Sequence record: PQ561395
From: Escherichia phage Ec1-ASingh
DNA: 24,556 bases
Strand: one strand, 5' to 3'
Shown one piece after another: positions 1,413 through 20,340 of the stretch; position 1 is the first letter of the stretch, and each line of letters begins with the position of its first letter. The notes under the pieces are model-generated. The model ran no database searches. It was not told the origin of the DNA and saw only the letters and a program-made list of their open reading frames with translations. A program made the translations under genes and the position numbers.

Positions 1413-2810
1413 TTAACCGTCCACATTAAAATCAATACGAGTGATGTATTTACTACCCCACGCCGAATCCGCTTGGGGTATGGAGGCGTAACCGTCAACA
1501 GCCTGAACGTTTATCACGGAGCCGTCGGAGTAGGTAATGTCAATGCTTGTCGCGCTATTCATGGTTACTTTTGCTGATGCCGTCGTTCGGGTTACCGGTG
1601 ACGATTCGGTTACTATTGGCGACGTGGCAAAAGGTGATTTTTCTATTTGCATCGCGCACACTAATATCCCACTAACCCCGTCACCGACAAATGAACCAAC
1701 GGCGGAGTTGTTGTACACCCATGACGCTAAAAGCAGAGAAGATGCGCCGCCCTGGCGTATAGCTACCGTTTCTGTAAATCGATACCAACCATCGCCAAGC
1801 TCTGCTATATCGCTGCCGGGGGCGCCCGCGTAAATAACCCCTGTCGATAAGTTAGCAACACAATCCGCGATAAACCCAGCATCATCAGCGGCGCGAAGTC
1901 TCGCATAATTATAGCCATATGCCTTAGCAACGTAACTGAGAGTGTATACATCACCCTCCGCAAAAGCGGAAGACACCGATTGATATACGAGATGGCTGTC
2001 GTTTGTCTGGGTCGGGACTAGTGAGAACGTACCGCCGTTTAGAAATCCGTCAACGGCGTCCGACACTGTTGCTCTAGTTTTAACCCACGATGCGTCAGAT
2101 AATTTCGACGATTTAATCAGGATATTGCTGGATGTGGATTCTGGCGGCACACGCCCGACCGCAACACCATCAATGAACGTAAGAGGCCATTCATTGGCGG
2201 CGGACTGCACAAGATTGCCATTTCGGTTGATGTAGTAAACCTGTGGCCCATCGTAAACAATGCGGCTATCAAGAGTCGACGCCAGAAGGTTAATCGGTGG
2301 ATACCCGGCAGGCCCTTCATTGCTCCAGATGCGCGGGAACGTAGTTTCGTAGTTCGCGTATATTTTCAGGAAACATCCCAGCCCATCGCCATAGCAACCG
2401 TACAAATCTGGAAGATTGTTAATCAGACACTGGTTCTCTTGGTCCTGGAACGGCGATTTCTCGGCGGTTGCCGTGAAGGTAATCGTCCAGTTAATGCCGT
2501 CTTCGGTGGACTCCGCGATGGTGGATGTAATTGTTACCTGGTAATCCTCAATGCCCATGCCGAAGTCGTGCGCCATCCAGAAACTTGACGCACCGCCGTC
2601 TACTTTTTCGAGGAACGACAGAAACGCCTGCCGCCCCAGCGCCGATGTAATCAGAGTTACGCTTACCGGAAACACGTCATAATAAGTGTCACGGCCCTGA
2701 CGTACGCCGCCTCCGGCTAAATCTACGCTCCAGACGTTATTGCGTCTGGTCATTGAGTAGCCTTTTGATACCACAGGCTTAAGGCTACGTGGGAAATATA
2801 CTTCGCTCAT
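1413..2810 (-). CDS. minor tail protein M-like N-domain fused to ~350-aa C-terminal extension
   Basis: ORF track 465 aa; start overlaps tape-measure stop (TAATG). N-terminal ~115 aa (VSVTLITSALGRQAFLSFLEKVDGGASSFW) resembles lambda gpM (YSVTLSVPREEATVLESFLEEHGGWKSFLW); remainder unrecognised. Confidence 0.5.
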   Translation of the reverse strand: MSEVYFPRSLKPVVSKGYSMTRRNNVWSVDLAGGGVRQGRDTYYDVFPVSVTLITSALGRQAFLSFLEKVDGGASSFWMAHDFGMGIEDYQVTITSTIAESTEDGINWTITFTATAEKSPFQDQENQCLINNLPDLYGCYGDGLGCFLKIYANYETTFPRIWSNEGPAGYPPINLLASTLDSRIVYDGPQVYYINRNGNLVQSAANEWPLTFIDGVAVGRVPPESTSSNILIKSSKLSDASWVKTRATVSDAVDGFLNGGTFSLVPTQTNDSHLVYQSVSSAFAEGDVYTLSYVAKAYGYNYARLRAADDAGFIADCVANLSTGVIYAGAPGSDIAELGDGWYRFTETVAIRQGGASSLLLASWVYNNSAVGSFVGDGVSGILVCAMQIEKSPFATSPIVTESSPVTRTTASAKVTMNSATSIDITYSDGSVINVQAVDGYASIPQADSAWGSKYITRIDFNVDG

Positions 2811-5149
2811 TATTTAAACCCCGGCGCGTTTCTTGTGGCCTTGCGGGCCTTGCTAATCTTACTGTTGCTGTTCTGCAAAGATGCGGCCACTTGCTCTTCT
2901 ATGATGATGCGCAAACGGCCTTCGTCATCCTGCTCTGTAGATACGTTGCCAATCTGACTCGATGTGTTATTTACAATGGTAACATTAGATGGGCCGGAAG
3001 AAGACCCGTTTTGCCCCATAATTTCTTTCATCTGCTGCGCGGTTCGTACGCGCGATGCACCAGCAGGCATGATAACTTCTGGTTTACCGCGTTCGGCGAT
3101 GGTGGAAGCCTGCCCCGCAGATAACTGACCGCCCTGTTCACGTGCGGACCTGATAGCGGAAACCTGCGCCATACCTGCCCCAACGGCAGCGGCAGCGGCT
3201 ACAGGGGCCAGGAACGGGCCAACTACAGGGATAGCCGCCGTGGACTTGTATGCCTCAATAGCCGCGGTGTAAGTGGCGATAGTGGCCTGTACGATAGCGA
3301 ATGCCTTATACGCGCCAGAAGCCTCCCCCAACGCGGACCCGATGTTTGAAGCCATGTTACCGAAGGCGGCTGCCGTTGCGTCGGCGCGCTTCGTGGCGTA
3401 CTGCTCGTTGATGGCGTTGAGCGCGGCCTGATACTGCTTCTCGCTAATCAGACCCTGTTCACGGTACTTATCAGCTACCGCCAACTTCTGCTGTTCCTGG
3501 ATGTCGAGAAGCTCAAGCTCAGTGGCGTTCTGGCCCATAATCTGAGCCATGAAGTCGTCGCCTTTCTGCTGCTTTTCCTGCCGTTCTTTCTCCCGCTTGG
3601 CGAGTTCTTCCTGACGTGCGGTGTCCGCCTCCAGCATAATTTGAGTTTTGGCGTTCTCGTATTGCTGGTCGCTAAGAAGCTGGTTGCCGTAAAACTCTTG
3701 TAGCTTGGTTAACTGTTGCTCCTGATTAGCTTCTATTTTCTGGAATACGTCGTCATTGAGATGAATCGACTGGTAGTAGAAATCCTCCGCGGCTTTCTTC
3801 TGGCGCTCGAACGCGTCCGCAGCTTTCTTGGCGGCTTTTGCACCAGCATTATCATCTTCGGACCCGCCACCAGTACCAGTTACCTTAAATTTACTAAGCC
3901 CTTCTTCCTTAGCGGCTTCTTTGTCGATGTCATATGCCGCGCGTTTAAGCGCGACGATATTTTGCTGAGCCTCCACCTGTTCGCGGAAACTTTTACGGGT
4001 CAGGTCCGCAACATCGCGCTGAGTATCCAGTGCCATCCCTAGCTGGAAGTTAATGTTTTTTGCTACGTCTACAGATTCCCCTGGTGTGAAGGCTGCTTTC
4101 ACCAACCGGCCAGCGTCCTGCGCCCCTTTAACCATATCTTCAAAGAAGCGCTCCATCGCGGTAAATTCTTCCGCGATGAAATCGAGCGCATCGGCTGCTG
4201 ATTCCGCGATGGTTGTCGCCGTTTGTTCGCCGCTGTCGGTGATACTTTTACTGCTAAAATCCCAAAGTTCATTCAGTCCATTTATCGCGTCACCTACAAA
4301 ACCAAATGCCGCGTCGAACGACATCTCTATCGCGCCGCCCACTTCTGACGCGATGTCACCCCACATACGCATCTCAGCGGTGAGTTCGCCGGATGCTACC
4401 TGTGCGTTAAGTTCCTGGATTAAATCATCGATGTACCGGATAGGTTCCGCAAGAGCACCAACATCAAGGCTGGTAGCCAGTGTCATTTTTAACTGCGACC
4501 ATGAGTCGCTGGCACTGGCGATGGCCCCGTTAAGTGTGTTGGCCTGGTCCGCCATAGCCCCCGCGAAGTTTACGTTACCAATGTTGAGCAGGTATTGCTC
4601 GATGTCGGCAGCGCTCTTCTTAACTACCGTAGTGGTGCCCTGGAATGTAAATTCAACATCGTTTTTGTTCTGCTTGGCCTTGATACCAAATTCTTTAAGG
4701 CGCTCAAATTCAAATGTACTAGCGTCCGCAACGGCCTCAATCATCTGATTAAGGTCTTTACCCATAGCAGCGGCAGTGTTGCCATAGGAGCGCAACGCTT
4801 CTTCTGAGGGGGTAAGGCCGAGAGCCACCAGTTTACGGAATCCCTCTACCGCCTGTTCAAGGCCATACGGAGTGTCGCGCGCGAAGTCTTGCAGGATGCT
4901 TAACGCCTGTCTTGCCCCCTGCGTGCTTCCGGTTAGTGTTTTCAGGCTGGCGGACATCTTGTCCAGTTGCCGTTGGGAGTCTACCAGTTCCTGTGCGGCC
5001 TTGTACGCTGTCGCGGCGACAATTGAAGCGAGTCCAGCTACGGCTGCCCCCGCTACTTTTGCCGACTTGGAGAGATTATCAAGACGGTCCGATGTAGCTT
5101 TCGCGCCTTGCTCTGATACCTTTACAACTAAACTAGCTACATCAGCCAT
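2810..5149 (-). CDS. tail tape measure protein
   Basis: 779 aa, Ala/Gln/Glu-rich with long coiled-coil-like stretches; lies immediately downstream of the G/GT chaperone pair. Confidence 0.8.
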   Translation of the reverse strand: MADVASLVVKVSEQGAKATSDRLDNLSKSAKVAGAAVAGLASIVAATAYKAAQELVDSQRQLDKMSASLKTLTGSTQGARQALSILQDFARDTPYGLEQAVEGFRKLVALGLTPSEEALRSYGNTAAAMGKDLNQMIEAVADASTFEFERLKEFGIKAKQNKNDVEFTFQGTTTVVKKSAADIEQYLLNIGNVNFAGAMADQANTLNGAIASASDSWSQLKMTLATSLDVGALAEPIRYIDDLIQELNAQVASGELTAEMRMWGDIASEVGGAIEMSFDAAFGFVGDAINGLNELWDFSSKSITDSGEQTATTIAESAADALDFIAEEFTAMERFFEDMVKGAQDAGRLVKAAFTPGESVDVAKNINFQLGMALDTQRDVADLTRKSFREQVEAQQNIVALKRAAYDIDKEAAKEEGLSKFKVTGTGGGSEDDNAGAKAAKKAADAFERQKKAAEDFYYQSIHLNDDVFQKIEANQEQQLTKLQEFYGNQLLSDQQYENAKTQIMLEADTARQEELAKREKERQEKQQKGDDFMAQIMGQNATELELLDIQEQQKLAVADKYREQGLISEKQYQAALNAINEQYATKRADATAAAFGNMASNIGSALGEASGAYKAFAIVQATIATYTAAIEAYKSTAAIPVVGPFLAPVAAAAAVGAGMAQVSAIRSAREQGGQLSAGQASTIAERGKPEVIMPAGASRVRTAQQMKEIMGQNGSSSGPSNVTIVNNTSSQIGNVSTEQDDEGRLRIIIEEQVAASLQNSNSKISKARKATRNAPGFK

Positions 5150-5923
5150 CGTTTCTACCCTCGAAAATAGCGTCTAAGCTCATGATGATGTCAGATTCGA
5201 ACATGCCTATATTCTGGCCTGAAACGGTGCTGTATGCCACTAAATCCGACCATCTTAACTGTTCGCGCGGGTACATCTTGATGCCATCATCGTCCACTCG
5301 GCGGGTGAATTTGATTTCCCTGTACTTCTCGAAGGTGGTTAATAGCTCAGGGGGGCATTCCGGCCCTGTGTCCTGCGTTGCTTCCGGCGCGTCTTGCATA
5401 ACCCCCATAGCAATTAGCGCAGCTTTATGCCCGTCGGCAATACTGTCAAACTCCCGCCGTTTGTGGCGGGTTATGAAGTTCCAACGGGCAAACTGGAGCA
5501 ACGCGTCTACTTTTCCTGCAATTGATGAAGCTGTTCATTGTGGAAAACAACAACGTGTTCAGCGAGTCGTTTATATTGTGAGAAAAGAGTATTCAGGTTC
5601 TCTTTATTAAATTCATCGTCGAGACTCCAACCGTTAACCAGTTCAAGCGCTAACTGGCGGTTGAGGTCTGTTGCGGCGTCTTCCATCTTGATGTTGTATT
5701 CCGAGAAATCTTTCAGTTCCTCGCATTTATCGCGAAGCGGTTTCAATTTACCTAATGCCGCGCGGTACGCAAGTGTAAACGCCCTCATAGCTTTAACAGC
5801 AACGTCTGCCTCCGGTGAAACAACGTTCAGCCACTCCCCTGAATCGGTGCCGTCTTTCAGTGGTATCGGCATACGGGCGCCTTTTTCTGCCTCAGCTTCG
5901 TAATAAAAATCAGAAAGTTTCAT
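5142..5923 (-). CDS. tail assembly chaperone GT-like fusion (predicted -1 programmed frameshift product)
   Basis: The 119-aa ORF 5142-5501 has no own ATG/RBS (TTG only) and is open upstream into the 3' end of the G ORF in the -1 frame. mRNA reads CAG GAA AAG UAG; slipping at A-AAG gives ...QEK-VDALLQFARW... Confidence 0.5.
5507..5518 (-). promoter_or_regulatory. putative -1 ribosomal slippery site (G-GAA-AAG followed by UAG stop)
   Basis: Sequence read directly; A-AAG Lys-tRNA slip motif adjacent to stop codon. Not the canonical X-XXY-YYZ heptamer. Confidence 0.35.
5507..5923 (-). CDS. tail assembly chaperone (lambda gpG analogue)
   Basis: 138 aa acidic ORF between major tail protein region and tape measure; followed by an overlapping -1 frame ORF (5142-5501); AAGGA RBS upstream. 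Confidence 0.6.
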   Translation of the reverse strand: MKLSDFYYEAEAEKGARMPIPLKDGTDSGEWLNVVSPEADVAVKAMRAFTLAYRAALGKLKPLRDKCEELKDFSEYNIKMEDAATDLNRQLALELVNGWSLDDEFNKENLNTLFSQYKRLAEHVVVFHNEQLHQLQEK

Positions 5924-13084: not shown

Positions 13085-13117
13085 TTAGTAAATGAAAAGA
13101 GGGACCGAAGTCCCTCT
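13085..13117 (-). terminator. rho-independent terminator downstream of major capsid gene
   Basis: AGAGGGAC-CGAA-GTCCCTCT hairpin (about 13098-13117) followed on the minus strand by TTTTCATTT; lies between capsid stop (13134) and next start (13074). Confidence 0.55.
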
Positions 13118-13133
13118 CGATTATAGCTTAACC

Positions 13134-14183
13134 TTAAGCCCCGACACCAGTTACCAGGAAGGCAATCGGTACGTGCTTGCGGTCAACCACACGGTTCCAG
13201 TTGGAGGCGTTCGCCAGGTCCTGCCAGGAAGCAGAGCGGGCTACTGTCTCAGTACCATTGCCAGTAATCACCGCGCTGGTGAAGCTGTAACCAAACGGGT
13301 GAAGCAACCAGGTCTTACGGGTCCACAGGGTTTCAACGCCGCCACCGTTACCACGAGACGCTTCGCGCTCGTATTCCAGCGGGTTAGACGGATCGCCTTC
13401 ACCATAACCGATAGCGCCGTTGCCGAAGATGATGGAGATGAACTTACGGTTAGAGCCGGTGCCGACTACGGTCATGCTGTCGTCAACAATCACGCGGTAG
13501 CCCTGGTAGGTGGCGAACATGGTGTTGTTGTCGGCGTCACGGATGAAGTCAATAAGCTGCTGCTTACCGGCCTGCGCATAAACGAAGCTGTGCATCGCGA
13601 TAGCACCCAGCACTTCACCGCCGTTGCCCATCAGCGCATCGCCCATAGTCTGGGTAGCGTCGATGAACGCACCTGCATCGAAGCCCAGAGTAGAGGACAC
13701 GTCGATTACCATGTCGTTCTGCTCGTGGTACGCGTCGGTAGCGGCTACGTTGTCGTTGTACAAACCGAGCGCGGTAGCGATCAGACGGCGTTGCGCCTGA
13801 CGCTGCCAGAAGTTATCCAGACGGGCTGCTACGGATTTAAGCGGGTCCTGGCGGGTAAGTTCAACGGTCAGATCCGCCTGACCAAAACCTTCGTTCAGGT
13901 AAGCTACGCGAACGTTCATCTCACCAGTCTGTACGTTGCGCGGGGTAGCGACGTCCTGATATACATCGTTCGAGTAGTTCGGCTCGATAGAGGTATCAAT
14001 AGCTTTCCAGTACGGCAGAACAGCTTTGTTGGATGGGCCGTTTGCGATAGCAGCGGCGTACGGAGTCGGGGTAAGGATACCGGACTGGAAGAACGCGGTT
14101 TTCTCTACCGGGTCCTCTGTCATGTAAGACAGAATGACCGATTCTTTACCAGTTACGATATCGCCGATAGTAGTAATTGCCAT
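13134..14183 (-). CDS. major capsid protein
   Basis: 349 aa; strong GAGGA SD; immediately downstream of scaffold gene and followed by a terminator; composition typical of coat proteins. Confidence 0.65.
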   Translation of the reverse strand: MAITTIGDIVTGKESVILSYMTEDPVEKTAFFQSGILTPTPYAAAIANGPSNKAVLPYWKAIDTSIEPNYSNDVYQDVATPRNVQTGEMNVRVAYLNEGFGQADLTVELTRQDPLKSVAARLDNFWQRQAQRRLIATALGLYNDNVAATDAYHEQNDMVIDVSSTLGFDAGAFIDATQTMGDALMGNGGEVLGAIAMHSFVYAQAGKQQLIDFIRDADNNTMFATYQGYRVIVDDSMTVVGTGSNRKFISIIFGNGAIGYGEGDPSNPLEYEREASRGNGGGVETLWTRKTWLLHPFGYSFTSAVITGNGTETVARSASWQDLANASNWNRVVDRKHVPIAFLVTGVGA

Positions 14184-14887
14184 TATTTTTTCCTCAGGGC
14201 TTTAAGTTGCCGTTCAAATTCGGCAGGGTTCGATTCGTACAAAGCGATACGCTCTGCTTCACTCATGTCTTTAAACGCTGGTGCGGCCCCGCCGCCTTTG
14301 CTACCGGAAGCCCCGCCGCCGGAAGCTGCATTTGCTTTAATCAAATGCGAAAACGCTTTGTGTTCGCGCAGGTATTTGCGGAACTGTTCCGGGTCAGTCG
14401 TGATTACGTTACCGTCTGCGCCGACAAACTTAGTAACCACGTCATCGCCTTCGAACTCAGTCTTAACGAACGGAGCAAGAATGTCTACTGCTTCCGGGGT
14501 AATAAAGTCACCTGCGAAAGAGCCTAACACCGCTTTACGTTCGCTGCCGAGGATGCGCTCAGCCATTTTGGTTATGCGACCATCTTTCTCGGCTAACACC
14601 GGGTCATACTGGCTACGAATCGTCTTTTCGAACTCATCCATCTTACCAGCGGCTTTTAATGCCTCCTGGTGTGCGCGCTGCCGTTCTTCTTCGGCCTCTT
14701 TTGCTTTACGGGCGGCTTCTTTCTTCTCCGCCAGCAATGCTTCCTGATTGGCCTTAAGCCCGGCGACTTCTTTCTCAATCAGCGCCTGAACTTCTTCAGC
14801 GGTGAACATTTTCGGCGCGTCACCGCCGCCAGATTTATCTTCTGCTCCAGCTTCTTCCTGGAACGGATAACGTAAAAAACGATTCAT
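14183..14887 (-). CDS. scaffolding protein
   Basis: Highly charged coiled-coil (EALLAEKKEAARKAKEAEEERQRAHQEALK); likely start is ATG 14887 (MNRFL...), since the track start 14941 is a TTG; directly upstream of major capsid gene. Confidence 0.6.
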   Translation of the reverse strand: MNRFLRYPFQEEAGAEDKSGGGDAPKMFTAEEVQALIEKEVAGLKANQEALLAEKKEAARKAKEAEEERQRAHQEALKAAGKMDEFEKTIRSQYDPVLAEKDGRITKMAERILGSERKAVLGSFAGDFITPEAVDILAPFVKTEFEGDDVVTKFVGADGNVITTDPEQFRKYLREHKAFSHLIKANAASGGGASGSKGGGAAPAFKDMSEAERIALYESNPAEFERQLKALRKK

Positions 14888-14969
14888 AGTCAGTATGTCC
14901 CCTGGACGTTGGAATCCGGGCCTCCCGGATTTACATGTCAAGGATAAATTATTCCAACATGCAAGGCAA

Positions 14970-15814: not shown

Positions 15815-15841
15815 TCAGTTAACTTAAACAGGAGATGAGAA

Positions 15842-16363
15842 ATGATTACTACAGTAATTACTTTCCCTGCGTATGTAGGGGCGAAAATATGCAGGGCTAA
15901 AAATGATGTTCGCTACTATTTGAACGCTTTTTACATAGACCCTGAGGGATTGATAGTGTCTACGGACGGTCATAGATTGTTCTGCGACAATGTGAAGACC
16001 AACGTTGAGAAAGGGACTCTCATAGACATCAAAGGGAGAGAGCCTTCTAAATTTAACTACGCGGAGGTAAACCACGACAACGGCAGTGTATCTTTCTATG
16101 ACGATAATCGTGCGCTTATATGTACACTTCCGGTAGATGTTGTAGAAGGAAACTTTCCTGACTGGAGACGCGTGGCGCGCATTACTCCTGGTACCGTCGA
16201 TAGCATAGGGTTCTCTCTGCGCTATTTAGCAGACGCGCACAAGATTTCTAAGGCGTATAAAAATGAAATTGCTCGTTTCGATTTCCAGGACCAAACAAAC
16301 GGATGCAAAATATCATTTTCAAACACAGCATTTATGGTGTTAATGCCTGCGCGAGTTAAATAA
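15842..16363 (+). CDS. truncated beta sliding-clamp (DnaN) homolog: domain II plus C-terminal half of domain III
   Basis: 173 aa. Motifs matching E. coli DnaN (from memory): NDVRYYLN (DnaN 150-156 DVRYYLN), STDGHRLFC (ATDGHRLAVC 171-180), GNFPDWRRV (GRFPDYRRV 240-247), FSLRYLADA (FNVSYVLDV), C-terminal MVLMPARV (VVMPMRL 360-366). No domain I equivalent. Confidence 0.8.
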   Translation: MITTVITFPAYVGAKICRAKNDVRYYLNAFYIDPEGLIVSTDGHRLFCDNVKTNVEKGTLIDIKGREPSKFNYAEVNHDNGSVSFYDDNRALICTLPVDVVEGNFPDWRRVARITPGTVDSIGFSLRYLADAHKISKAYKNEIARFDFQDQTNGCKISFSNTAFMVLMPARVK

Positions 16364-16390: not shown

Positions 16391-16852
16391 TCATTCTGGC
16401 TTAGTGACCTTCGCCGCTTTACTGACGACCTCTACACCATCGTCATCGGTAACTTTAACGAAGTATTCACCAACTGCATTAACCGTCAGAGACAAAGCCT
16501 CTTCCGGGGCGTTGACTACTTCCTTGCCGTCTTTGTACCAGGTCAGCACATACGGCGCTTTACCCGCTTTAACTTCGACAGTGATGGTTGCGCTGCCGTC
16601 TGCCAGTTCAGCGTCCTGCGGTTGCACTGAGAAATACACGTCGCCAGCGTCCGCCAGATACGGAATCTCATAAAGCATACCCGCCGCGGGCAGCGCGATA
16701 CCGGTCTTGTCTGCAAACGGCATCTCGTCTACAGGTGTACCGAGTACACTTTCGTCTTCAATAAACACCACGTTCTCGCCGGAGCCAGACACGCGGGCGT
16801 ACTGGACCACACGACGCGACGGCACATCAGTTACTTTGAAAAAGCCCATCAT
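16391..16852 (-). CDS. Ig-like domain-containing protein (possible head decoration/accessory)
   Basis: 153 aa; start overlaps Mu F-like stop; C-terminal TITVEVKAGKAPYVLTWYKDGKEVV...GEYFVKVTDDDG is Ig-like. Confidence 0.5.
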   Translation of the reverse strand: MMGFFKVTDVPSRRVVQYARVSGSGENVVFIEDESVLGTPVDEMPFADKTGIALPAAGMLYEIPYLADAGDVYFSVQPQDAELADGSATITVEVKAGKAPYVLTWYKDGKEVVNAPEEALSLTVNAVGEYFVKVTDDDGVEVVSKAAKVTKPE

Positions 16853-18822
16853 TAATCCCCTTTCAGATAATCAGCAACACGTTTATCGAGTTCCGCCATC
16901 TGCTTAAGCGTGAGCGGATTCCCGAAACCATCTACAGATATTACGCGAAACTCCTCTGGTGATATACCGCTGTTGCGGAAAATCTTACCGCGGGTCGGCC
17001 CGAGTGCTTCATCGACGAACCACGCCGGTTGTTGTTTAAGGAACTCGTAATAGGTGGTGTCCGCGCTTACCTGAGTACCACCGTCTGCACCCTTAGCCGC
17101 ACGTTTTGCACCTTTATCGAGGAAGTCGAACTCGGAACTGATTACCGGAGCCGTGGTACTTCGGCACCCAAAATGTGCTGGCGGCATCGGCCCTTTACCG
17201 ATTTCCCACGTCATTCCGTCTCTGGCCCTGCAATTCTTGACTATCGCACTACCTGCTGTATAATATCCTTGACTACTAGAGAGGGTATAAACATGGCACG
17301 TTCTAAACTCGACGCTTATGCGGATGATATTTGTTCTTTGTACCGAGATGGCACTCCCGCCAGCATCATAGCCAAGAATTACGGCGTCACTACCACCACG
17401 GTAACAACATTTCTCAAGAAGCTCGGACTCATGCATGATCGACCCCGGGGTTGGGTTTCTAACGACACCATTTTGAATCAAAAAAGGGCTATAGAATTGT
17501 TCGAGTCCGGCGTCCCGCCTATTGAGTGCATAAGAAGGACCCAAGTAAGCAAAACAGTTTTCTATTCTATGGTCAAAACACTTGGCCTCGCTAAGCGCGG
17601 GCACACTCACAGGACATTCACCCCGGAGGAGAAAATCGCCAGAGCTATCGTCCGACAGCAAAGCGGCGCTATGAATAAGACTGAAACCCTCGCTTTTGAA
17701 TTGTTTAATTCCGCTGGCGTGGACGTAGTTCCGCAGTTTGCAATCGGCCCGTACAATGTCGATTTTGCCATTGAGTCCCACTCCATCGCCATAGAAATCT
17801 GTTGCCGCGGGACTCGTGCTTACCATTTTCCTGATGGGGAAATCAGCGAGCGTATTAAAAATATAATCCGCTCTGGCTGGCATGTTTATGTTCTTCACTG
17901 TTTCGAGCACAGTCACTTTGTCAACAGTGGTATACAAGACATGCTTAGTTGGGTCGAGTTCATCAAGCGGAGTCCATCCGTATTGCGTGAGTACAGGGTG
18001 TTTCGGGGTGCCACTGAACTTCTCGCCGTTGGAAAGTTCGATGGTAAGGATTTTTCCTGAATAGAGTCCGCGCATTACCGCGTCCATCCCCGCGATGGGC
18101 GCTAATTCTGTTTCAGCCGTGAAACACGTTGTACTGGTACGGCTGTCCAGCGTTGACACCCATTCGTACTTCTCGATGATGTCGTCGTTCTGGCGGTACG
18201 TCTCGTTACGTGCTTCGTTGGATACGTGCGACAGCGCGGTGCGTATTACGGTAGCTGCGTTACGTTCAGAGATATCAGCCAGGCCACCAGCACCAACAAC
18301 ATTCTTAACAATCTGCCGTGTTGTCTGGCCTTGTACAAAGCCCATCTTAACGCCTGTTACAAGGCGCGCGACTTCTGTTTCCCCCCAGCCCGACATCAGC
18401 TTAGTGAAGTCAACTGGCTTGTCGCTTAATGATAATGGCTGAAACTCGGCGGCGGACCACACCTGTTCAGCGGTCGGGGTAACAAATTCCGCATTAACGT
18501 TAGCCGTGAGTGTCTTCACATTCCACTCAGCCTCATACGCTGCAAGCTCCTTAAGGTCTTCCGTCAGCTTTGTCCGCCAGTCACCAGTAAGCCCTGTCAA
18601 TGCTTCTTCAAGGTCGAGTAACAGTTTATTCAGTCGCGCAGTGCTCCGCCCGTCGTCGCCGAATAACAGCACCTGCCGTTTGATTTCGTCCCGCATCTCC
18701 TTAATGAACGGCGCGAGGTCTTTCACCTCACCGGATGCAGTGCGTTGCAGCCATATCTGGTGGCTGATTAGAGATGTAAGTAAGCTCATAGATAAACCCT
18801 GTGGCGCTAAAGTTAATAGCAT
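16852..18822 (-). CDS. head morphogenesis protein (Mu F / SPP1 gp7-like) interrupted by an in-frame intein
   Basis: 656 aa. Exteins carry YEWVSTLDSRTSTT | CRARDGMTWEIGKGPMPPAHFGCRSTT, i.e. the family LD.RT...CR..DG ... PP.H..CR pattern is restored only after removing residues 233-530. Confidence 0.8.
   Translation of the reverse strand: MLLTLAPQGLSMSLLTSLISHQIWLQRTASGEVKDLAPFIKEMRDEIKRQVLLFGDDGRSTARLNKLLLDLEEALTGLTGDWRTKLTEDLKELAAYEAEWNVKTLTANVNAEFVTPTAEQVWSAAEFQPLSLSDKPVDFTKLMSGWGETEVARLVTGVKMGFVQGQTTRQIVKNVVGAGGLADISERNAATVIRTALSHVSNEARNETYRQNDDIIEKYEWVSTLDSRTSTTCFTAETELAPIAGMDAVMRGLYSGKILTIELSNGEKFSGTPKHPVLTQYGWTPLDELDPTKHVLYTTVDKVTVLETVKNINMPARADYIFNTLADFPIRKMVSTSPAATDFYGDGVGLNGKIDIVRADCKLRNYVHASGIKQFKSEGFSLIHSAALLSDDSSGDFLLRGECPVSVPALSEAKCFDHRIENCFAYLGPSYALNRRDAGLEQFYSPFLIQNGVVRNPTPGSIMHESELLEKCCYRGGSDAVILGYDAGGSAISVQRTNIIRISVEFRTCHVYTLSSSQGYYTAGSAIVKNCRARDGMTWEIGKGPMPPAHFGCRSTTAPVISSEFDFLDKGAKRAAKGADGGTQVSADTTYYEFLKQQPAWFVDEALGPTRGKIFRNSGISPEEFRVISVDGFGNPLTLKQMAELDKRVADYLKGD
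17237..17264 (+). promoter_or_regulatory. near-consensus sigma70 promoter (TTGACT-16nt-TATAAT) for the nested plus-strand gene
   Basis: Read directly; lies ~29 nt upstream of ATG 17293, with GAGAGGG SD at 17279-17285. Sits inside the intein block-G coding sequence on the opposite strand. Confidence 0.5.
17293..18060 (+). CDS. HTH-HTH + Vsr/DUF559-like (PD-(D/E)XK) endonuclease, putative homing endonuclease, nested antisense within the intein
   Basis: 255 aa from ATG 17293 (track ORF opens at 17029). Two HTH-like segments (GTPASIIAKNYGVTTTTVTTFLKKLG; GVPPIECIRRTQVSKTVFYSMVKTLG); C-terminal VVPQFAIGPYNVDFAIESHSIAIE...ERIKNIIRSGWHVYVL matches the DUF559/Vsr-like pattern. Own promoter and SD. 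Confidence 0.6.
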   Translation: MARSKLDAYADDICSLYRDGTPASIIAKNYGVTTTTVTTFLKKLGLMHDRPRGWVSNDTILNQKRAIELFESGVPPIECIRRTQVSKTVFYSMVKTLGLAKRGHTHRTFTPEEKIARAIVRQQSGAMNKTETLAFELFNSAGVDVVPQFAIGPYNVDFAIESHSIAIEICCRGTRAYHFPDGEISERIKNIIRSGWHVYVLHCFEHSHFVNSGIQDMLSWVEFIKRSPSVLREYRVFRGATELLAVGKFDGKDFS

Positions 18823-18858: not shown

Positions 18859-20340
18859 TTACTGCTGAGTGCCATCTTGTTGCCGCGCCGACTGCGGAAT
18901 CTCTCCTACCACCTGAGTAACAGCACCTAACGGCAGAGGTGCGTCCTCAATAGCGTTCTGAATATCCTCGTCGGTCCAGTCAGTCACCCCTGCTTTACGC
19001 AACGCGGCGTAGTAAGCTGTAGCCGGTAACAGGCCTGCGTTAATATCCACCATCCACTGTGCACGGTCCTGAGCGGTCATCGGTTGCAGGAAGAACTCCA
19101 TGTTAAGTTTGAACTCAATCTCTGTGCCTTCACGCAACCCTAGCATCGCAGCCACCCAGCGCAACGAATCGGTGTACGCCATGCTTACGTTACGTGCGAT
19201 TGTCGCCATAACAGACGTATCCGCACCACGTTGCAGGCGGGCAGATTCAGCGGTTATTTGCTGCGTCGGGGTGATAAGCTGCGCGCCAATCTGGATGGCC
19301 TGATTCTCTTTATCCAGCATGTTCTGCTTAGCCAGGTTGTTCTCCTCTGCCTGAACCAGAAACGCGTTGCCGCCGTACCCGATGTTATGGCCTGAACGTG
19401 ACCCCATGCGCACGCCGTGTGGGTTGGCCTCTTTCCACTGTTCCATGCTCATGTTCTCGCCCGGGGCGATGAACAGAGTGGGCTGGCCTACAACGAAACT
19501 GGACTCTTCATTGTCCGCGCTGTTACGGAAATGCCCGATATTCAGCTCAGCTAACGGTAGCAAAGGTGCGTCGTCGATGGTGGCATCGTTGTTGCTTGCC
19601 CCGATGAACGTGAACGGGATTTTGCCGCGTAACTGTTCGCCAAGTTCAGGGAATATTTCGATTACTTCGCCCTGCGCGCCACCTTCGGCATCGAAGCGGT
19701 AAATGCGCTGGCGGTAGCGCCCGTCGATCAAATCGAGAACGCGGTATTGCTCACCGAATTTTGTTTCGAACTCTGCGCCCAGTTCCGAGTATTCCCACAC
19801 CTCGCGCAACACAACCATCGTCACGCGGTTAACAGAACCGACGCGAGTCAGTCGCCAGTTGATGATGTTCTCTGCGGTATAGAACGCAATGACCGGGTTT
19901 AATAGTCCCGCGTTCTGTTCGGCTGCCGTTGCTGCGGCGGTCTCTGGTGCATCAACCAGCAACCCGCCACGACCTACCGAGTCAATTTCCATCAAAGTAT
20001 CCTGCGCGTGCTGCCATAGCCCGACGCCCGAACCGTCAGCGTTGCGTAACAGGTACTCAAGTTCAGGCGGGATAATCTGCTCAGGGTCTTTACGCATAAC
20101 ACTGCCGACCATCCCCGCCAGGGTACGTTTAGTGAAGTTGTAGCAGATAGCGCCGTTCTCGTATTCTTCCTGGCGCTGTGCCGCATAGGTCGGGTCAGGC
20201 TCGTTCTTCCCGACGTTGCGCAGATAGCGAATAAGGTCGCCTTCCAGCGCGTGGCGTACCTTCTGCCATTTATCGAAGTGATGCAGCCATTCCCGGTGTT
20301 TTGTCTTAACACCCTGATTCTGACCGTTCATAGTTAACAT
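18859..20340 (-). CDS. portal protein
   Basis: 493 aa; position between terminase/HNH and head morphogenesis gene; size and composition typical of portals. Confidence 0.75.
   Translation of the reverse strand: MLTMNGQNQGVKTKHREWLHHFDKWQKVRHALEGDLIRYLRNVGKNEPDPTYAAQRQEEYENGAICYNFTKRTLAGMVGSVMRKDPEQIIPPELEYLLRNADGSGVGLWQHAQDTLMEIDSVGRGGLLVDAPETAAATAAEQNAGLLNPVIAFYTAENIINWRLTRVGSVNRVTMVVLREVWEYSELGAEFETKFGEQYRVLDLIDGRYRQRIYRFDAEGGAQGEVIEIFPELGEQLRGKIPFTFIGASNNDATIDDAPLLPLAELNIGHFRNSADNEESSFVVGQPTLFIAPGENMSMEQWKEANPHGVRMGSRSGHNIGYGGNAFLVQAEENNLAKQNMLDKENQAIQIGAQLITPTQQITAESARLQRGADTSVMATIARNVSMAYTDSLRWVAAMLGLREGTEIEFKLNMEFFLQPMTAQDRAQWMVDINAGLLPATAYYAALRKAGVTDWTDEDIQNAIEDAPLPLGAVTQVVGEIPQSARQQDGTQQ

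Follow-up and report, generated by a model that had tools for sequence, protein, structure and literature searches.

A class 1 intein carrying a putative Vsr-like homing-endonuclease gene on its opposite strand in the head morphogenesis gene of Escherichia phage Ec1-ASingh

Background

Endonuclease genes lying antisense within contiguous inteins have been described recently by Gosselin, Arsenault and Gogarten (bioRxiv 10.1101/2025.01.02.630785, October 2025 version), who report both LAGLIDADG and VSR-like examples in inteins of actinobacteriophages. Their supplementary table contains the class "minor capsid, MuF-like, IPR006528, class 1, VSR -1 ORF", with Gordonia phages Angelicage, Vivi2, Affeca, Fosterous and Malisha among its members. 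The same preprint cites Gorbalenya 1998 for antisense LAGLIDADG open reading frames (ORFs) in inteins (Synechocystis dnaX and a Chloroflexus SpoVR-like protein, as given in that citation). A related arrangement is that of fractured genes, in which, according to the portion of Dassa et al. 2009 (PMC2677866) drawn on here, a free-standing Vsr-like or GIY-YIG endonuclease gene lies between the halves of a split intein. Here we describe an element of this kind in a 24,556-nucleotide stretch of Escherichia phage Ec1-ASingh (record PQ561395; the whole stretch is hereafter called the window, and all positions are counted from its first letter), where a class 1 intein interrupts a Mu F-like head morphogenesis gene and a Vsr-like protein is encoded on the opposite strand of the same codons.

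We consider it probable, from comparative sequence evidence, that this is a mobile class 1 intein whose homing endonuclease is a separate opposite-strand gene in the codon-aligned (-1) register. On sequence homology the element belongs to the same family as the published "VSR -1 ORF" inteins. The arrangement is not new, and an earlier note on the window, made from its letters without database searches, had been mistaken in regarding it as undescribed, as antisense VSR-like endonucleases in MuF-like inteins are reported in the preprint.

Results

The two overlapping features at the centre of this study are the following:

17233–18126, minus strand: class 1 intein of 298 amino acids (894 bp, 298 codons), recognised by precise insertion relative to an intein-less allele, by intein hallmarks and by profile matches
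17293–18060, plus strand: putative antisense homing-endonuclease gene of 255 amino acids from the ORF list, two resolvase-type helix-turn-helix (HTH) modules followed by a Vsr-like nuclease domain

With slashes marking the junctions, the precursor reads ...LDSRTSTT/CFTAETEL...AIVKN/CRARDG..., and comparison with phage vB_VIPECOTPH05A and other intein-less alleles places the insertion precisely and in frame at a conserved site. The earlier note had described a 298-residue insert at 17233–18126 between LDSRTSTT and CRARDG, which translation confirms, and had expected a precise 894-bp indel against relatives lacking it, which was found in the comparison with vB_VIPECOTPH05A. All of the hallmarks that it listed (Cys1, TxxH, VYTL, a terminal Asn and a +1 Cys) are present, namely as Cys1, block B T40-P-K-H43, block F HVYTL, block G ...AIVKN, Asn298 and Cys+1; Cys1, the block B TxxH, the terminal Asn and the +1 residue are invariant in an alignment of five intein sequences. 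Taken alone, the window insert falls below the Pfam cut-off for PF14890 Intein_splicing (E 3.6e-4, 20.8 bits vs 35.8); five of five aligned intein homologues match this family (best E 1.2e-10) and no other, and a profile of the intein frame retrieves from the PDB only solved inteins (PI-MtuI, E 8.8e-8). Neither a LAGLIDADG, HNH nor any other nuclease domain was detected in the intein frame by Pfam, NCBIfam and PDB sequence searches, in agreement with the note; as these searches returned intein splicing regions only, an in-frame endonuclease was rejected. The two splicing parts lie at the ends of the element:

17812–18126, minus strand: N-terminal splicing domain of the intein, approximately amino acids 1–105, with blocks A and B, assigned by homology to the Snoke and Angelicage inteins
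17233–17295, minus strand: intein blocks F and G, His278–Asn298, the opposite strand of which holds the promoter-like site, Shine-Dalgarno (SD)-like sequence and start codon of the putative endonuclease gene

Homology with the Snoke and Angelicage inteins in the intein frame spans amino acids 1–130, and the codons of the N-terminal splicing domain also encode the C-terminal ~80 codons of the endonuclease. We infer that the 656-amino-acid precursor undergoes protein splicing, because phages KMB36, fEg-Eco06 and BEU35 are viable with the same insert in their head morphogenesis gene.

The plus-strand ORF runs from the ATG at 17293 to the TGA at 18060 in codon-aligned antisense (-1) register to the intein frame. 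TTA, CTA and TCA codons were said in the earlier note to be missing from the intein, which holds only in part: two exist, a TTA (codon 8) and a TCA (codon 23) that forms the endonuclease stop, and codons 24–298 are free of them. Such a 275-codon run, in which ~9.6 of these codons would be expected under the local codon usage of neighbouring genes, was reached in none of 20,000 synonymous re-encodings, and the exteins contain 13 in 358 codons; the note was thus right that several would be expected by chance and that the exteins contain them.

Elsewhere in the window, a 551-codon plus-strand ORF (13092–14747) lies antisense to the major capsid (13134–14183) and scaffold (14183–14941) genes. It has no homologues and no PHROG match; phage Sciku has it intact, fEg-Eco06 a shortened version and Jerseyvirus relatives only fragments of 198–279 codons, and the capsid gene 13134–14183 is itself without TTA, CTA or TCA codons. 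We regard this ORF as most likely an artefact of codon bias, useful as a negative control: because it is present, ORF length alone is weak evidence in the Ec1-ASingh genome.

Comparison across relatives is more telling. An ORF with 100% amino-acid identity to the endonuclease is found on IMG/VR contig IMGVR_UViG_3300045988_006100, and three relatives, P0001, P0002 and P0003 (52%, 45% and 26% identity), came out of a search of 5.8 billion proteins, each on a ~1-kb metagenomic contig with an uninterrupted intein frame of a diverged MuF gene on the other strand. A second insertion site lies 18 codons downstream of the one used in the window, where it is empty (~17179, PPAHFG/CRSTT); it is filled in Snoke and in many Salmonella Jerseyviruses, and the intein there is also accompanied by an antisense Vsr-like ORF. 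The Snoke intein (MK931441; locus L002, 1816–2631) has 272 amino acids, is different from that of the window (PPAHPN/C...HN/CRSTT), and its antisense ORF is homologous to the window endonuclease (25% identity, E 2e-11). Further nested elements were found in L009, L012, L013, L019, L022, L023 and Gordonia phage Angelicage, whose antisense ORF is 26% identical to the window endonuclease (E 3e-17) and whose intein N-terminal domain is 34% identical to that of the window (E 7e-21). L013 (IMGVR_UViG_3300031576_000021, 2797–5763) is a single 988-amino-acid MuF-like gene with two inteins, one per site, both with an antisense Vsr/DUF559-like ORF; the upstream ORF (376 amino acids) has Cys-rich zinc-ribbon-like repeats in place of the HTH modules and only marginal similarity to the window endonuclease.

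The intein frame contains no stop codon in any of 13 distinct, diverged nested elements with identities down to ~25%, and the plus frame, which the earlier note had proposed to look for in a closed state in homologues, is likewise open in all 13. A fractured-gene or split-intein reading was rejected on the ground that the intein frame is stop-free in the window and in 13/13 nested relatives. We conclude, from these comparisons, that the plus-strand ORF 17293–18060 is a real gene and not a chance ORF.

By tblastn, endonuclease relatives were found in 47 GenBank phage records, every match listed lying under a MuF or minor-head gene, with the antisense orientation confirmed for three of the 47. 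By organism, these are Salmonella (21), Gordonia (11), Escherichia (4), Haemophilus (2, Aaphi23), Aggregatibacter (2) and Idiomarinaceae (2), with one record each for Vibrio, Shigella, Cronobacter and Jerseyvirus. A full-length endonuclease gene is annotated in 0/47 of these records; vB_StyS-sam has a partial "hypothetical protein" ORF on that strand. A free-standing relative also exists (L020 2517–3191 and L021 1082–1756), matching DUF559 and MTES_1575 and carrying a canonical EIDGGNWH motif. It is convergent to an uninterrupted MuF-like gene, overlaps the 3' end of that gene by 50 bp and is not nested in an intein, because stops occur in all three antisense registers. Estimates of how large the family is, and of the proportion of free-standing to nested members, derive from the word-indexed search and tblastn.

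Metagenomic copies of the endonuclease (L005–L009 and most word-indexed matches) sit nearly all on ~1-kb contigs, roughly the length of an intein. This would fit assemblies that break at the edges of inteins when alleles with and without the intein occur together, and long contigs may for that reason systematically under-represent such elements. One candidate, P0004 on L010 (GCA_001292545.1, CYGL01006417.1), was left unused as an apparently chimeric palindromic contig of 1.5 kb: a 99%-identical intein/endonuclease fragment is joined there to terminase-like sequence on both strands in an inverted duplication, probably an assembly or amplification chimera.

Since third positions of endonuclease codons lie opposite first positions of intein codons, substitutions can be assigned to one frame or the other. 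In the middle of the site-1 elements (3 sequences) differences amount to 0.41, 0.35 and 0.62 at endonuclease codon positions 1, 2 and 3, and there are 104 codons in which only the intein residue has changed vs 19 in which only the endonuclease residue has; the corresponding counts for the middle of the site-2 elements (5 sequences) are 271 vs 74. The counts for the two frames are similar over the N-terminal splicing domain of the intein (34 vs 23 in site-1, 114 vs 148 in site-2). Past the endonuclease stop the intein frame is the more conserved (site-1, 2 vs 10), as it is upstream of the endonuclease start in site-2 elements (10 vs 61), site-1 elements showing no difference there (9 vs 6). Judging by these patterns, selection in the middle of the element is on the nuclease frame, and at the ends on the intein frame or on both.

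Two regions of the plus-strand protein can be assigned:

17311–17580, plus strand: two tandem HTH modules, endonuclease amino acids 7–43 and 57–96 (predicted helices, profile match to 2lvs, HTH_7)
17677–18039, plus strand: Vsr-like nuclease core, endonuclease amino acids 129–249, with Glu131, Asp157, Glu168 and Arg187 invariant

An AlphaFold2 (AF2) model, built from only 4 sequences with a predicted local distance difference test score (pLDDT) of 74, consists of two three-helix modules followed by an alpha/beta domain with a Vsr-like nuclease fold, so that the absence of such a fold, which the earlier note would have counted against its proposal, was not observed. In profile searches of the kind suggested there, a profile of the family matches the two-HTH protein 2lvs over both modules (E 3.7e-6) as well as resolvase HTHs, and aligns across the full domain of 3r3p at E 0.07; PF18741 (MTES_1575) and HTH_7 each match six of the eight family members, with HTH_7 at E 1.6e-4 in the window protein. 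Glu131, Asp157, Glu168 and Arg187 are invariant in 8 sequences with identities down to 23%, and Asp157 is aligned with I-Bth0305I Asp196 and Vsr Asp51. Thus, of the protein proposed in the note, the 255-residue antisense product, the two HTH motifs and the Vsr-like fold stand, and the PD-(D/E)XK/Vsr core proves incomplete, the His of the EDxHD motif being replaced by Arg175. Most site-2 relatives do have His at the aligned position; P0003, L012 and L013b carry it (...GW-H...) and Snoke does not. The hidden Markov model alignment sets the last acidic residue of I-Bth0305I, Asp222, two residues from Glu186. Catalysis, if present, would use a variant active site. The C-terminal hairpin LREYRV of the endonuclease is conserved and shares its codons with intein block B (TPxHPvLT).

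The elements of the 894-bp unit also behave as one block. It differs at one position from KMB36 and at three from fEg-Eco06, with 1–3 differences across the three GenBank Kagunaviruses KMB36, fEg-Eco06 and BEU35 (99.6–99.9% identity), and the flanking 150-bp stretches are 87–93% identical to those of KMB36 and fEg-Eco06. The last difference before the element is at 17191 (KMB36) or 17215 (fEg-Eco06) and the first after it at 18154, so that the identical tract extends up to ~40 bp and ~27 bp beyond the two junctions. At the junctions themselves, intein-bearing genomes read ACA ACG/.../TGC vs ACG ATT/TGT in intein-less ones. A near-identical element in diverged flanks with short identical tracts is the pattern expected of recent homing with short co-conversion, to which these alignments point. 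In the portion of the KMB36 paper drawn on here, a 900-bp intein in the MuF-like gene is noted and an endonuclease goes unmentioned.

Candidate expression signals of the endonuclease gene were located on the plus strand:

17237–17264, plus strand: sigma-70-type promoter-like site TTGACT-16-TATAAT, 11/12 consensus positions
17279–17285, plus strand: SD-like GAGAGGG, 7 nucleotides before the ATG, seen in the sequence
18080–18112, plus strand: possible intrinsic terminator (hairpin with T-rich tail) past the endonuclease stop, weakly indicated by a pattern scan

The pattern TTGAC-N17-19-TATAAT has a single match in the 24.5-kb window, with 0.03 expected by chance. Its -35 hexamer is the complement of the intein Val-Lys-Asn codons of block G and its -10 hexamer that of T290-Y289-Y288 (ACA TAT TAT); both hexamers and their spacing are retained in L005 (CATAAT) and L006 (TATAAT). 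Both intein classes retain GAGG(G/T)-N6-7-ATG, which is complementary to block F H-V-Y-(T/N)-L. The endonuclease start, ATG in 9/13 elements and GTG in 2/13, is the His codon of block F read in reverse complement. The earlier note had assigned a near-consensus promoter and the SD alike to block G, which is correct for the promoter; the SD and the start codon lie within block F codons. The terminator-like hairpin has an RNA fold z of -2.75, with a comparable one in L005 and none that convinces in L006.

The host gene and its parts are as follows:

16852–18822, minus strand: gene for a Mu F / SPP1 gp7-like minor head (head morphogenesis) protein precursor, 656 amino acids including the intein (ORF list, Pfam, TIGR01641)
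18127–18822, minus strand: N-extein, 232 amino acids, ending ...LDSRTSTT, from alignment with the intein-less allele
16852–17232, minus strand: C-extein, 126 amino acids plus stop, starting CRARDG, from the same alignment

The window belongs to the structural module of a Kagunavirus (Guernseyvirinae) of Escherichia coli, with ~90% identity to Kagunavirus genomes over its whole length. The precursor matches Pfam Phage_Mu_F (E 3.9e-8) and TIGR01641 (SPP1 gp7; E 3.3e-11), and is annotated in GenBank relatives as "minor head protein with inserted intein"; its start is given here as the first ATG, internal Met12 being the annotated start in some of these relatives. The gene is flanked by the portal gene (18859–20340) on one side and a Hoc-like decoration gene (16391–16852) on the other. 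A megablast search with the MuF-like gene returned 275 phage records, only 3 of them with the insert, and most of the best matches listed cover ~55% of the query in two pieces. In vB_VIPECOTPH05A the protein alignment gives a clean indel between STI and CRARDG (...LDSRTSTI/CRARDG...), and an example of intein-less DNA around the insertion site reads ...ACCAGTACGATT/TGTAGGGCCAGAGAC...

Further along, a plus-strand gene (15842–16363) stands within the otherwise minus-strand structural module. It is called a "DNA polymerase III sliding clamp" in the Snoke annotation vs a match to PHROG 3007, "RusA-like Holliday junction resolvase"; being absent from KMB36 (alignment gap 15819–16268) and replaced in fEg-Eco06, it is a variable accessory gene with conflicting annotations.

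Discussion

The reading that we favour, of a mobile intein with its homing endonuclease encoded antisense, draws on the precise indel, both frames being open in 13 elements, frame-specific selection, the predicted Vsr-like fold, the Pfam and PDB similarities and an identity pattern of the homing type, all of which support the dual coding put forward in the earlier note. The following course of events can be proposed. The minus-strand mRNA, presumably made late in infection, would be translated into the 656-amino-acid Mu F-like precursor, from which the two parts of the Hint fold (N-terminal ~105 and C-terminal ~40 amino acids) would splice out the 298-amino-acid insert, restoring the LDSRTSTT-CRARDG junction and with it a functional head morphogenesis protein. 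The ~150 codons between the splicing parts would be mainly a stop-free linker in the intein frame. Plus-strand transcription by host RNA polymerase would start from the promoter within block G, giving a transcript with a 21-nucleotide leader and SD from which the 255-amino-acid HTH-HTH-Vsr-like protein is made. In a mixed infection this endonuclease would cut the intein-less MuF allele near ...ACGATT/TGTAGG..., and repair from an intein-bearing genome would copy the intein and the endonuclease gene together, along with ~30–40 bp of flank on each side.

Several observations speak against this reading or limit what can be built on it. The penultimate residue of the intein is Lys297 and not the usual His, the window intein and its site-1 relatives ending in ...VKN; site-2 relatives mostly end in ...HN, with ...RN in Angelicage and ...SN in L023. 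Some active inteins are without a penultimate His, which is common rather than strictly defining. In the endonuclease, the general-base His (I-Bth0305I His213, Vsr His69) is replaced by Arg175 in the window and by Tyr and Phe in P0001 and P0002, respectively, and the last acidic position (I-Bth0305I Asp222, Vsr Asp97), likely Glu186 beside the invariant Arg187, is occupied by Lys in P0002. For the intein frame, the AF2 model made from 3 sequences has a pLDDT of 30.7 and is uninformative on the linker, so that a foldless linker is unsupported by it. The pairs used in the sign tests are phylogenetically non-independent, which makes the p-values approximate, with the direction consistent throughout. 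The promoter hexamers overlap conserved intein residues (V-K-N and Y-Y), and conservation of the expression signals is suggestive and not independent evidence, because the same bases encode these residues. A long meaningless antisense ORF (13092–14747) is found elsewhere in the same genome. Finally, transcription from the plus-strand promoter, translation, splicing, cleavage and the target site are all steps that we infer.

The variant active site lends itself to a different interpretation, in which the plus-strand protein is real and selected but acts as a DNA-binding regulator or is an inactive relic, the intein having spread by ordinary recombination between co-infecting phages. This would fit the lack of the EDxHD His in the window protein and in the two homologues closest to it, the variable last acidic residue and the two HTH modules, which among the recognisable sequence features are conserved best. 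Set against them are the four invariant core residues, conserved across eight sequences down to 23% identity, and the selection on the core of the nuclease frame. Further evidence against it is that the element is at least 99.6% identical within exteins of 87–93% identity and has sharp boundaries ~30–40 bp outside the junctions, as expected from nuclease-driven homing, and that relatives lie at two different conserved Cys sites of one gene. We regard a regulator or relic as unlikely.

The free-standing relative next to the uninterrupted MuF gene in L020 and L021 indicates that the family needs no intein, and one could suppose from it that the endonuclease is active on some other target, such as the DNA of a competing phage or of the host, in interference or exclusion, with the intein as a safe harbour only. 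However, the relatives lie under a MuF or minor-head gene in all matches listed from the 47 GenBank records, and the intein travels together with the endonuclease gene in a single near-identical block whose boundaries fall at the insertion site, which leaves this explanation very improbable.

That the plus-strand ORF is a chance product of codon bias over the meaningless linker of a mini- or degenerate intein, as the functionless 551-codon ORF and the codon-aligned register (the most permissive for antisense ORFs) might suggest, is effectively refuted by the comparative data: the frame is open in 13 elements down to ~25% identity (the 25–52% identities ruling out homologues that are mere assembly duplicates), amino-acid conservation in the middle of the element is higher in it than in the intein frame, its product matches Vsr-like nucleases and HTH domains in Pfam, PDB and fold comparisons, and a free-standing relative with a DUF559 match exists.

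Returning to the antisense homing endonuclease, a further and more tentative suggestion is that intein and endonuclease gene form an obligately interlocked dual-coded unit and are not simply a gene sitting in a linker. We rate this possibility below even. It draws on the promoter, the SD (Leu CTC) and the start codon being built from conserved splicing-block codons, and on the codons that LREYRV shares with block B. If so, neither function could decay without damage to the other, which could explain why no broken frame is seen among the nested relatives. Head-on early transcription could in addition time or dampen MuF expression, and the family would be common and unannotated in the MuF genes of phages of both Proteobacteria and Actinobacteria.

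With an intein of this kind in E. coli phages that are cultured and form plaques (KMB36, fEg-Eco06, BEU35 and, at the second site, Snoke), the acquisition and retention of homing endonucleases by inteins would become genetically testable. The codon-aligned register lends itself to this: Leu or Ser codon swaps that are silent in the intein create stops in the endonuclease, and a TAT-to-TAC change at Tyr288-Tyr289 destroys the -10 hexamer and leaves the intein protein unchanged. The endonuclease genes going unannotated in phage records amounts to a systematic annotation gap, and such elements may drive local gene conversion in candidates for therapeutic phages.

Among known systems, the "VSR -1 ORF" inteins are the closest, sharing a contiguous intein, a MuF-like gene, a -1 antisense Vsr-like ORF and, in the case of Angelicage, homology. 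They differ in their hosts, actinobacteriophages as against an E. coli Kagunavirus, and in the insertion site, the window intein occupying the upstream Cys (SRTST/CRARDG) and that of Angelicage the downstream site of the HPN/CRC type, as in Snoke. The window ORF overlaps block B and has its signals in blocks F and G. The text of bioRxiv 10.1101/2025.01.02.630785 does not contain the word "promoter" and matches "shine" only in an unrelated sense, and the preprint therefore appears not to analyse expression signals. I-Bth0305I, of the EDxHD (Vsr-like) homing endonuclease family (Taylor et al. 2011, PMC3239194), is encoded by a group I intron and has NUMOD DNA-binding motifs, in contrast to the two resolvase-type HTH modules of the window protein; its general-base His is Arg in the latter, and sequence similarity between the two is weak (E 0.07). 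Fractured genes, as far as the portion of PMC2677866 drawn on here describes them, likewise have, inside the intein region of a phage gene and with overlapping coding, a gene for a Vsr-like endonuclease that has expression signals of its own; their intein frame is broken, the intein split and the host gene divided in two, whereas here the frame is continuous and the endonuclease antisense. The antisense LAGLIDADG inteins, compared by description only through the citation of Gorbalenya 1998, resemble the window element in having a contiguous intein with an opposite-strand endonuclease, and differ in the type of nuclease (LAGLIDADG, not Vsr-like) and in being found in cellular hosts and not in a phage. 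The free-standing relative of L020 and L021 fits the model of the preprint, in which free-standing endonuclease genes invade inteins. To these systems the window adds occurrence outside actinobacteriophages, the use of two insertion sites, expression signals mapped onto the splicing blocks and the overlap of LREYRV with block B.

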